From a virus (taxonomy: Duplodnaviria > Heunggongvirae > Uroviricota > Caudoviricetes), in the IMG/VR virus record IMGVR_UViG_2526164693_000019, positions 1 through 18,180 of that record: a stretch of 18,180 bases of DNA; one strand, given 5' to 3'. Made by a program: the position numbers and the translations under genes. Numbering within the stretch: position 1 is the stretch's first letter; each line of letters opens with the position of its first letter. Of this stretch, positions 1,860 to 2,435 are shown piece after piece. The notes beneath the pieces are model-generated. The model saw nothing but the letters and a program-made list of their open reading frames with translations, searched no databases and had not been told where the DNA came from.

Positions 1860-2045
1860 GGGCGTAGTGGCCCATTAAAAATATTGCAAAGACCAACTAT
1901 TGTTGAACTGGATTAAACCAGTAATTCTCTATTGCTCTTATTGTTACCATCGGATGATTGCCGGGGGTTATTTTAAGTTCGGGAGGAAAAGGCTCTCCAT
2001 CAGCAGCCATCATTGAGTATGTGAAATCCGCCGACGCAGTCCCTT

Positions 2046-2435
2046 TCATGATAATTCCGAATTTTTCAAGTAATGAGAGCAGTTCCGGTAATCCTGTGTC
2101 ATCTGAATAACTTTCCTCATAGAAAGAAGCGATTGCCGCAGGAGATGACAGTTCTCGCTCTGCAATTTTTTTGTAGTTTTCCAGAATTCTTTTTTTGAAT
2201 ACTTTTCCTCGACATGAAAACCCATCACCGAGGCAATCCGCTTTGCAGTTTCTTCAGTATTCTGGTTGTTTGTTACCGAAACAGAGTACAATCCGGTAAA
2301 CGCATCGCGCACATTACGAGCCATATTATCAATGTATTTCTTCGTTGCAGATTCTAATTCAACTTCGTTCAGACGTTGGTGAAGTGCATGTGCTGCAATT
2401 TCCTGGATTTCTTTTAGTAAATCTTTAAATTCCAT
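2046..2435 (-). CDS. Prophage early protein in the ydfC position (129 aa in the zero frame); carries an A7 slippery run with a long open -1 frame downstream (see findings)
   Basis: ATG at 2435 with GGAG Shine-Dalgarno; follows the YdfB-like gene. After the run of 7 A on the coding strand (plus-strand T7 at 2190-2196) the -1 frame stays open for about 100 codons down to a stop at 1897-1899. Confidence 0.6.
   Translation of the reverse strand: MEFKDLLKEIQEIAAHALHQRLNEVELESATKKYIDNMARNVRDAFTGLYSVSVTNNQNTEETAKRIASVMGFHVEEKYSKKEFWKTTKKLQSENCHLLRQSLLSMRKVIQMTQDYRNCSHYLKNSELS

Follow-up and report, generated by a model that had tools for sequence, protein, structure and literature searches.

The 18,180-nucleotide stretch of DNA that we analysed (the window) carries, on its minus strand, an operon in the order dicA-like repressor, RelB/RelE, ydfA-like gene (DUF1391), ydfB, a gene split between two reading frames, DicF and dicB (Table 1). 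This is a dicBF-type early-left operon of a lambdoid prophage, a layout known for the Qin prophage and several O157 prophages (PMC5069750). In the Qin prophage of K-12, ydfC is the third gene of the ydfABC-dicF-dicB operon (PMC5069750), and the split gene is like it in occupying the slot between ydfB and dicF of a dicA-controlled operon. The first-pass annotation of this DNA had accordingly spoken of a ydfC-position gene, which was correct as to position but not as to homology: when K-12 YdfC was tried as a homologue, BLASTP returned nothing at E <= 100, and the gene, lacking sequence similarity to Qin ydfC, is a positional replacement rather than an orthologue.

A RelE/ParE toxin and RelB antitoxin pair separates the dicA-like repressor from the ydfA-like gene; neither the K-12 Qin layout nor the loci of ETEC1748 and TUM9812 include this pair. 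Just downstream of the split gene lies a small convergent ORF, which has 61 amino acids in RefSeq and contains a CPxC...C motif. In relatives this convergent ORF is 80 amino acids long (for instance at locus L004, 717-959, minus strand) and extends about 20 nt into the 3' end of the intact long gene; the window version ends before reaching the split gene.

Farther along the window, in the plus-strand region 16202-17442, are two ORFs that we take, by eye from their signal peptides and mature sequences, to be the A and B subunits of Stx2. Because three tRNAs precede these Stx2 A/B-like ORFs and the 'anti-stx2' sRNA AsxR follows them, the window is a Stx2-converting prophage with a Qin-type dicBF early-left arm. 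In a search with the whole window, no complete E. coli genome contained more than 62% of it in one place, and phage records matched the early region only partially, at a coverage of at most 37%. The region 10283-13782 contains an ORF for a C5 cytosine DNA methyltransferase that is faced by two minus-strand ORFs of 330 and 463 amino acids, the longer of which has what we take, by eye, to be a GHKL-type ATPase-like motif (DNCGGIP...GVYGIGMK). Annotations under aligned places elsewhere include 'DNA cytosine methyltransferase', 'ATP-binding protein' and 'O-methyltransferase', which are unassigned to single ORFs. This region may be a restriction or defence island within the prophage.

Table 1. Coordinates of the features described in the window.
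Feature	Coordinates	Strand	Remarks
DicF RNA	1285-1336	-	Rfam, 76.9 bits
Convergent small ORF	1674-1859	+	61 aa
Ancestral C-terminal coding region	1897-2166	-	residues 91-179 and stop; IAERELSS...WFNPVQQ; now in the -1 frame
ATGA overlap	2046-2049	-	zero-frame TGA (2048-2046) overlaps ATG (2049-2047)
Zero-frame ORF	2435-2046	-	129 aa; ATG at 2435, stop TGA 2048-2046
Modest hairpin	2127-2160	-	begins 5 nt 3' of the second run
Second A7 run	2166-2172	-	ACA AAA AAA TTG; A_AAA_AAA register as in the first run
First A7 run	2190-2196	-	coding strand TAT TCA AAA AAA GAA
GAGGA, Shine-Dalgarno-like	2206-2210	-	9 nt 5' of the first heptamer; encodes E-E
Shared N-terminal module	2280-2435	-	first ~52 residues; MEFKDLP...NVRDAFTGLY
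RelE/ParE toxin and RelB antitoxin pair	3010-3488	-
dicA-like repressor	3516-3917	-
C5 cytosine DNA methyltransferase ORF	10283-11434	+
Three tRNAs	15862-16108		upstream of the Stx2-like ORFs
Presumed Stx2 A subunit ORF	15989-17161	+
Presumed Stx2 B subunit ORF	17173-17442	+
STnc100	17517-17722
AsxR 'anti-stx2' sRNA	17724-17776	-	Rfam; after the Stx2-like ORFs

The first-pass annotation had described a zero frame that runs from the ATG at 2435 through TCA AAA AAA G, with an A7 run at 2190-2196, to a stop at 2046, and a -1 frame that has no start codon of its own, is closed by a stop about 20 codons upstream of that run, and is open for about 100 codons from it. We found all of these elements, the stop in the -1 frame being 21 codons upstream of the first run and its open stretch comprising 97 codons (RILENYKKIAERELSS...NPVQQ) up to the TAG at 1899-1897. 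A second A7 run is located 24 nt downstream of the first, and the junction of the two frames contains two zero-frame slippery heptamers of the X_XXY_YYZ form, both of them A_AAA_AAA and both in register. An A7 run by itself is no signal, and such runs are not unusual in the window, where 21 were observed versus 14 +/- 5 in shuffles. Alignment with intact relatives assigned residues 1-90 of the 129-amino acid product to the ancestral N-terminal part, and residues 91-129 (LQSENCHLLRQSLLSMRKVIQMTQDYRNCSHYLKNSELS) form a 39-residue out-of-frame tail. The two frames yield specific tryptic peptides, LQSENCHLLR from the zero-frame tail and ELSSPAAIASFYEESYSDDTGLPELLSLLEK from the ancestral frame. The downstream -1 frame is genuine coding sequence and not a chance open frame, as it aligns colinearly with the C-terminal halves of 177-186-amino acid single-ORF relatives.

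In order to locate the point at which the frames part, we used the conceptually fused protein as a query against 5.8 billion proteins, retrieved the DNA of the intact relatives, and compared 13 alleles codon by codon and at the DNA level. All relatives of 63-94% amino acid identity that had no run-length break of their own, which came from E. coli, Salmonella and IMG/VR contigs, were single ORFs of 177-194 amino acids, and thus the comparison with homologous prophage loci that the first-pass annotation had proposed found the long form to be a single ORF there. Intact relatives were read at 94% (P0001, 179 aa), 84% (P0002, 179 aa), 80% (P0003, 180 aa) and 63-70% amino acid identity (P0004 to P0009, 177-186 aa); ETEC1748 (186 aa) and TUM9812 (177 aa), at ~81% nucleotide identity, were likewise single ORFs.

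The frame break had been placed at the first A7 run, but every intact single-ORF relative reads through this run in frame, as Ser-Lys-Lys; nine alleles have A7 there, and three intact ones (strain A19, P0004 and P0009) have TCG AAA AAA. ETEC1748 and TUM9812 have the same TCAAAAAAAGAATTCTGGAAAA as the window, read in frame as S-K-K-E-F-W-K, and the one-base difference in length between them and the window falls after GGAAAA, at the second run. At that position the closest intact alleles (94, 84 and about 80% amino acid identity) have A8 and encode the peptide EFWKT[T/A]KKIAERE, with ACA AAA AAA ATT in P0001, which was found in three independent sequencing runs, and GCA AAA AAA ATT in P0002 and strain A19. 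Adding one A to the second run of the window yields a 179-amino acid protein that is colinear with the relatives (EFWKTTKKIAERELSS as compared with EFWKTTKKIAERELLS). Among other intact alleles, P0006 is in frame with A7 at this position (GCC AAA AAA ATC), and the ETEC and Salmonella types have no run there at all (AAA CGC, AAA AGA or AGG GCA), so that synonymous conservation of a slippery site fails at both the first heptamer and the second-run position. These comparisons place the frame break at the second A7 run, where one A appears to have been lost from an ancestral A8, and show that the first run is not the lesion and is not conserved as a slippery site. Of the recent pseudogenising indel that had been offered as one explanation, the loss of one base is therefore supported by the A8 of the closest alleles, although the site is 24 nt downstream of the run that had been named.

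To evaluate the spread of the split allele, a 201-nt query carrying A8 was compared with 5,426 complete E. coli genomes, of which 386 matched at >=99% identity. Every one of these 386 matches needed a one-base gap, and A8 was present in none. From the ranked matches we took 60 records at regular intervals: 58 of them agreed in bit score and in their 200-nt span, another had one additional mismatch, and the last was the distinct, intact allele of strain A19. This ranking implies that 385 of the 386 complete genomes share an identical 200-nt segment spanning the break, and that the remaining one has a single base change without any change in length. Carriers of the split allele include O157:H7, O121:H19 and O103:H2 strains, and the truncated allele is the commonest form in complete genomes (386 versus about 26). 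Four IMG/VR contigs contain a gene that is 100% identical to that of the window over the whole 539 nt, and five other IMG/VR contigs have intact ETEC-type genes. No relatives of the gene were found in the GTDB species-representative genomes.

Among the relatives read at 63-94% amino acid identity, no diverged one keeps the split, and the split alleles are all 99-100% identical to the window. We considered P0014 (129 aa, 93% amino acid identity) as a diverged split allele and rejected it, as its DNA is 99% identical with a few scattered changes. The split state is thus one young clone, whose near-zero divergence gives no ground to argue that the split is conserved. After the break there is a single window-specific substitution, AGG to ATG, which causes the non-conservative change R163M; the nine intact database relatives have R at this position, and strain A19 has K. 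This substitution hints at relaxed constraint on the stranded frame, as one event that is too few to test, and a post-break frame with one private substitution suggests that the deletion was recent.

We consider it highly probable that the gene has undergone a non-programmed frameshift mutation, namely a recent one-base homopolymer deletion in a prophage accessory gene. The ancestral gene would have encoded a protein of ~179 amino acids whose helical N-terminal module is common to several phage protein families and whose C-terminal part is specific to its own family. Within one sub-lineage the T/A-K-K-I junction codons would have become an A8 homopolymer, from which the window allele would have lost one A, presumably through replication slippage. 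Translation from the ATG at 2435 would then produce 90 native residues followed by 39 out-of-frame ones, leaving the last 89 codons stranded in the -1 frame, and this young mutant allele would have spread clonally with the prophage through O157:H7, O121:H19 and O103:H2 strains. A small full-length fraction is probably still made without a dedicated signal, the possible bypass routes being spontaneous -1 slippage at either heptamer and the addition of an extra A by RNA polymerase on the A7 tract. As a counterpoint to mutation, RefSeq names the 129-amino acid product hypothetical protein WP_000394511.1 and does not flag a pseudogene. The wide distribution of the allele and its invariant A7 in 386 genomes could alternatively reflect selective maintenance, which is inseparable from recent clonal spread because there is essentially no sequence divergence. 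Furthermore, the heptamers 24 nt apart, the GAGGA and the hairpin together resemble a recoding site, but all of these are inherited from in-frame ancestors.

Slippage at these runs has different predicted outcomes, as a -1 slip (or an extra A in the transcript) at the second run would restore the ancestral protein exactly, and a -1 slip at the first run would also lead into the long frame, but with 8 residues altered (RILENYKK for EFWKTTKK). Efficient slippage by RNA polymerase usually needs a run of at least nine A or T residues, and the run here is 7 nt long; low-level transcriptional slippage on it is plausible by analogy with PMC3812077. In E. coli, the frequency of -1 frameshifting at AAAAAAA was 0.405% without a stimulator, 0.82% when the IS911 signals were present and 24.8% when the IS3 pseudoknot was used (Sharma et al. 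2014, PMC4066793, Table S3). The same study reported that AAAAAAA is avoided in all frames, possibly owing to transcriptional slippage and indel mutation (PMC4066793), and in E. coli active enzyme was still made at basal expression from a gene whose 8A run had lost one A, through bypass of the deletion (Rockah-Shmuel et al. 2013, PMC3812077). As both runs in the window are A_AAA_AAA heptamers, each with a published slippage of about 0.4%, some unprogrammed full-length product is likely, by analogy, at the sub-percent to percent level. It is very improbable, in our estimation, that the A7 allele is 'leaky' in a selected manner, with the heptamers, GAGGA, hairpin and RNA polymerase slippage together providing a low, fixed dose of the 179-amino acid protein beside an abundant 129-amino acid form. 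If this were the case, that ratio would explain the presence of the allele throughout O157:H7, O121 and O103 Shiga-toxin strains.

Programmed -1 ribosomal frameshifting, as had been suggested in the first-pass annotation, would require an evolved site that fixes the ratio of 129- to 179-amino acid products, as at dnaX or in IS3-family orfAB, and we judge it very improbable. Its favourable evidence comprises the two in-register A_AAA_AAA heptamers, the hairpin that starts 5 nt past the second of them, the invariant A7 length in 386 genomes, and the GAGGA 9 nt upstream of the first, which is within the 6-17 nt range searched for Shine-Dalgarno-like sequences upstream of heptamers (PMC4066793); proven IS3-family sites also use A_AAA_AAA (PMC4066793, cluster A_AAA_AAA_1). 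However, the two-frame layout is not conserved, as the diverged relatives that were read are single ORFs and the split is one clonal allele, and that study does not list the gene in its conserved-motif clusters of prophage -1 frameshift candidates (PMC4066793). The supposed stimulators also sit in intact alleles, where they would be pointless, and are missing from other intact alleles: GAGGA is present in some and absent in others (AAA GAG AAA in strain A19, AAG GGA in P0004), and the hairpin has an equivalent in the intact A8 allele that differs by one base, in the apical loop. The search for a downstream stimulatory stem-loop yielded only this modest hairpin, and in folds without pseudoknots of 66-141 nt segments the downstream RNA was no more stable than dinucleotide shuffles (z -0.01 to -0.53). 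Moreover, all the intact alleles that were read have R or K at the position changed by R163M.

The dnaX frameshift site consists of A_AAA_AAG with a Shine-Dalgarno-like AGGGAG upstream and a stem-loop downstream. The window gene is like it in having a lysine-codon X_XXY_YYZ heptamer and a Shine-Dalgarno-like sequence ~9-10 nt upstream of the first heptamer, but the dnaX frameshift is conserved, efficient, dependent on a stable hairpin and responsible for a shorter product, whereas the elements of the window gene are not conserved, have no significant structure, and would give a longer, ancestral product. IS3-family orfA-orfB (A_AAA_AAA or A_AAA_AAG; IS600, IS911; PMC4066793) has the same heptamer and a trans-frame product that is likewise the longer one, but its two-frame layout is kept across diverged members together with a stimulatory hairpin or pseudoknot, whereas the diverged relatives of the window gene are single ORFs. 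The removal of one A from the 8A run of M.HaeIII (PMC3812077) is the same type of lesion as in the window, A8 to A7 in a lysine-codon run in E. coli, and in both cases the run behind the deletion is also a site where slippage by the ribosome or RNA polymerase can restore the frame. The M.HaeIII deletion arose in a laboratory drift experiment and its bypass was detected through enzyme activity, whereas the window allele is a natural one.

We also examined the protein families to which the gene is related. Searches of Pfam, NCBIfam and PADLOC gave no match above the curated cut-off, and PDB sequences gave no match. Matches to PHROGs covered the N-terminal module only and were all to families of unknown function, and deposited phage genomes contained only N-terminal relatives of 31% identity, in Stx phages. 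An AlphaFold2 model of P0001, built from a 38-sequence alignment, had a mean pLDDT of 50, with residues 1-70 helical at a pLDDT of 75-84 and the C-terminal part below 50; the N-terminal region is thus predicted, with moderate confidence, to be helical, and the C-terminal model is unreliable. The first ~52 residues are near-identical in a 212-amino acid 'Ybl81' family (P0019-P0120) whose C-terminus is unrelated, and the truncated 129-amino acid product would accordingly retain this shared module. The N-terminal residues of the window protein (AAHALHQRLNEVELESATKK) are closer to the Ybl81 type than to the nearest long-form allele, which suggests recombination between the long-form and Ybl81 gene families.

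The fusion of this N-terminal module to various C-termini (the 212-aa Ybl81 type; PHROGs 1363, 2151 and 9419) implies that it is an independent unit, and would be consistent with an adaptive truncation, in which the deletion was selected because the module alone is useful, perhaps with a reinitiated 50-amino acid peptide; we regard this as very unlikely. A stop-start overlap of the ATGA type is the classic layout for termination-reinitiation, and such an overlap does exist at the zero-frame stop, where the ATG opens an ORF in the ancestral frame (MKGTASADF...NPVQQ). Reinitiation there is possible, but the overlap is probably a coincidence, because the Met that this ATG encodes is conserved within the intact proteins. 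The truncated allele greatly outnumbers the other forms in complete genomes, but clonal O157:H7 genomes are over-represented there, which accounts for its abundance, and the break after residue 90 falls within a predicted helix (residues 81-96) and not at a clean module boundary.

Phase variation, in which slipped-strand mispairing in the A7/A8 tract would switch the long form on and off, is in our view highly implausible. Run lengths of 8, 7 and 6 do occur among close alleles, and in public assemblies a one-base loss at the first run has shifted the frame of other alleles (P0016 to P0018). However, A8 was present in none of the 386 complete genomes with the split allele, all 59 sampled carriers span 200 nt (A7), and the A8 alleles differ by further substitutions and therefore represent separate lineages rather than revertants. 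In addition, a run of 7-8 bases is short for an efficient phase-variation switch. The allele with A6 at the second run (P0011, 105 aa; locus L009, GCA_008122345.1, 3001-3318) sits among several broken genes (YdaT, exonuclease), and because these neighbouring genes in the same assembly are also broken, its A6 is likely to be a read error. Both the A6 and the first-run variants may be homopolymer read errors rather than real alleles, and the two runs are evidently hot spots for error or mutation.

A sequencing or assembly error in the window itself, which had also been raised, is in practice excluded: homopolymers are error-prone, and one assembly does have A6 at the second run together with several other broken genes, but many laboratories have obtained the A7 allele, which is present in 386 independently assembled complete genomes and in four IMG/VR contigs. 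The 200-nt segment is the same in 385 of these genomes, and the four contigs do not differ in the 539-nt gene.

Comparison with the relatives thus shifted the lesion by 24 nt and took away the case for a programmed event, and a slippery-looking heptamer beside a frame break is not evidence of recoding. Under the one-base deletion that we favour, the significance of the finding beyond annotation is small, and would be greater only if a leaky full-length product were functional. WP_000394511.1, which is present in hundreds of Shiga-toxin E. coli genomes, would be the truncated remnant of a 179-amino acid prophage protein and would be better annotated as frameshifted. For studies of this operon gene, the form to express would be the repaired A8 version.
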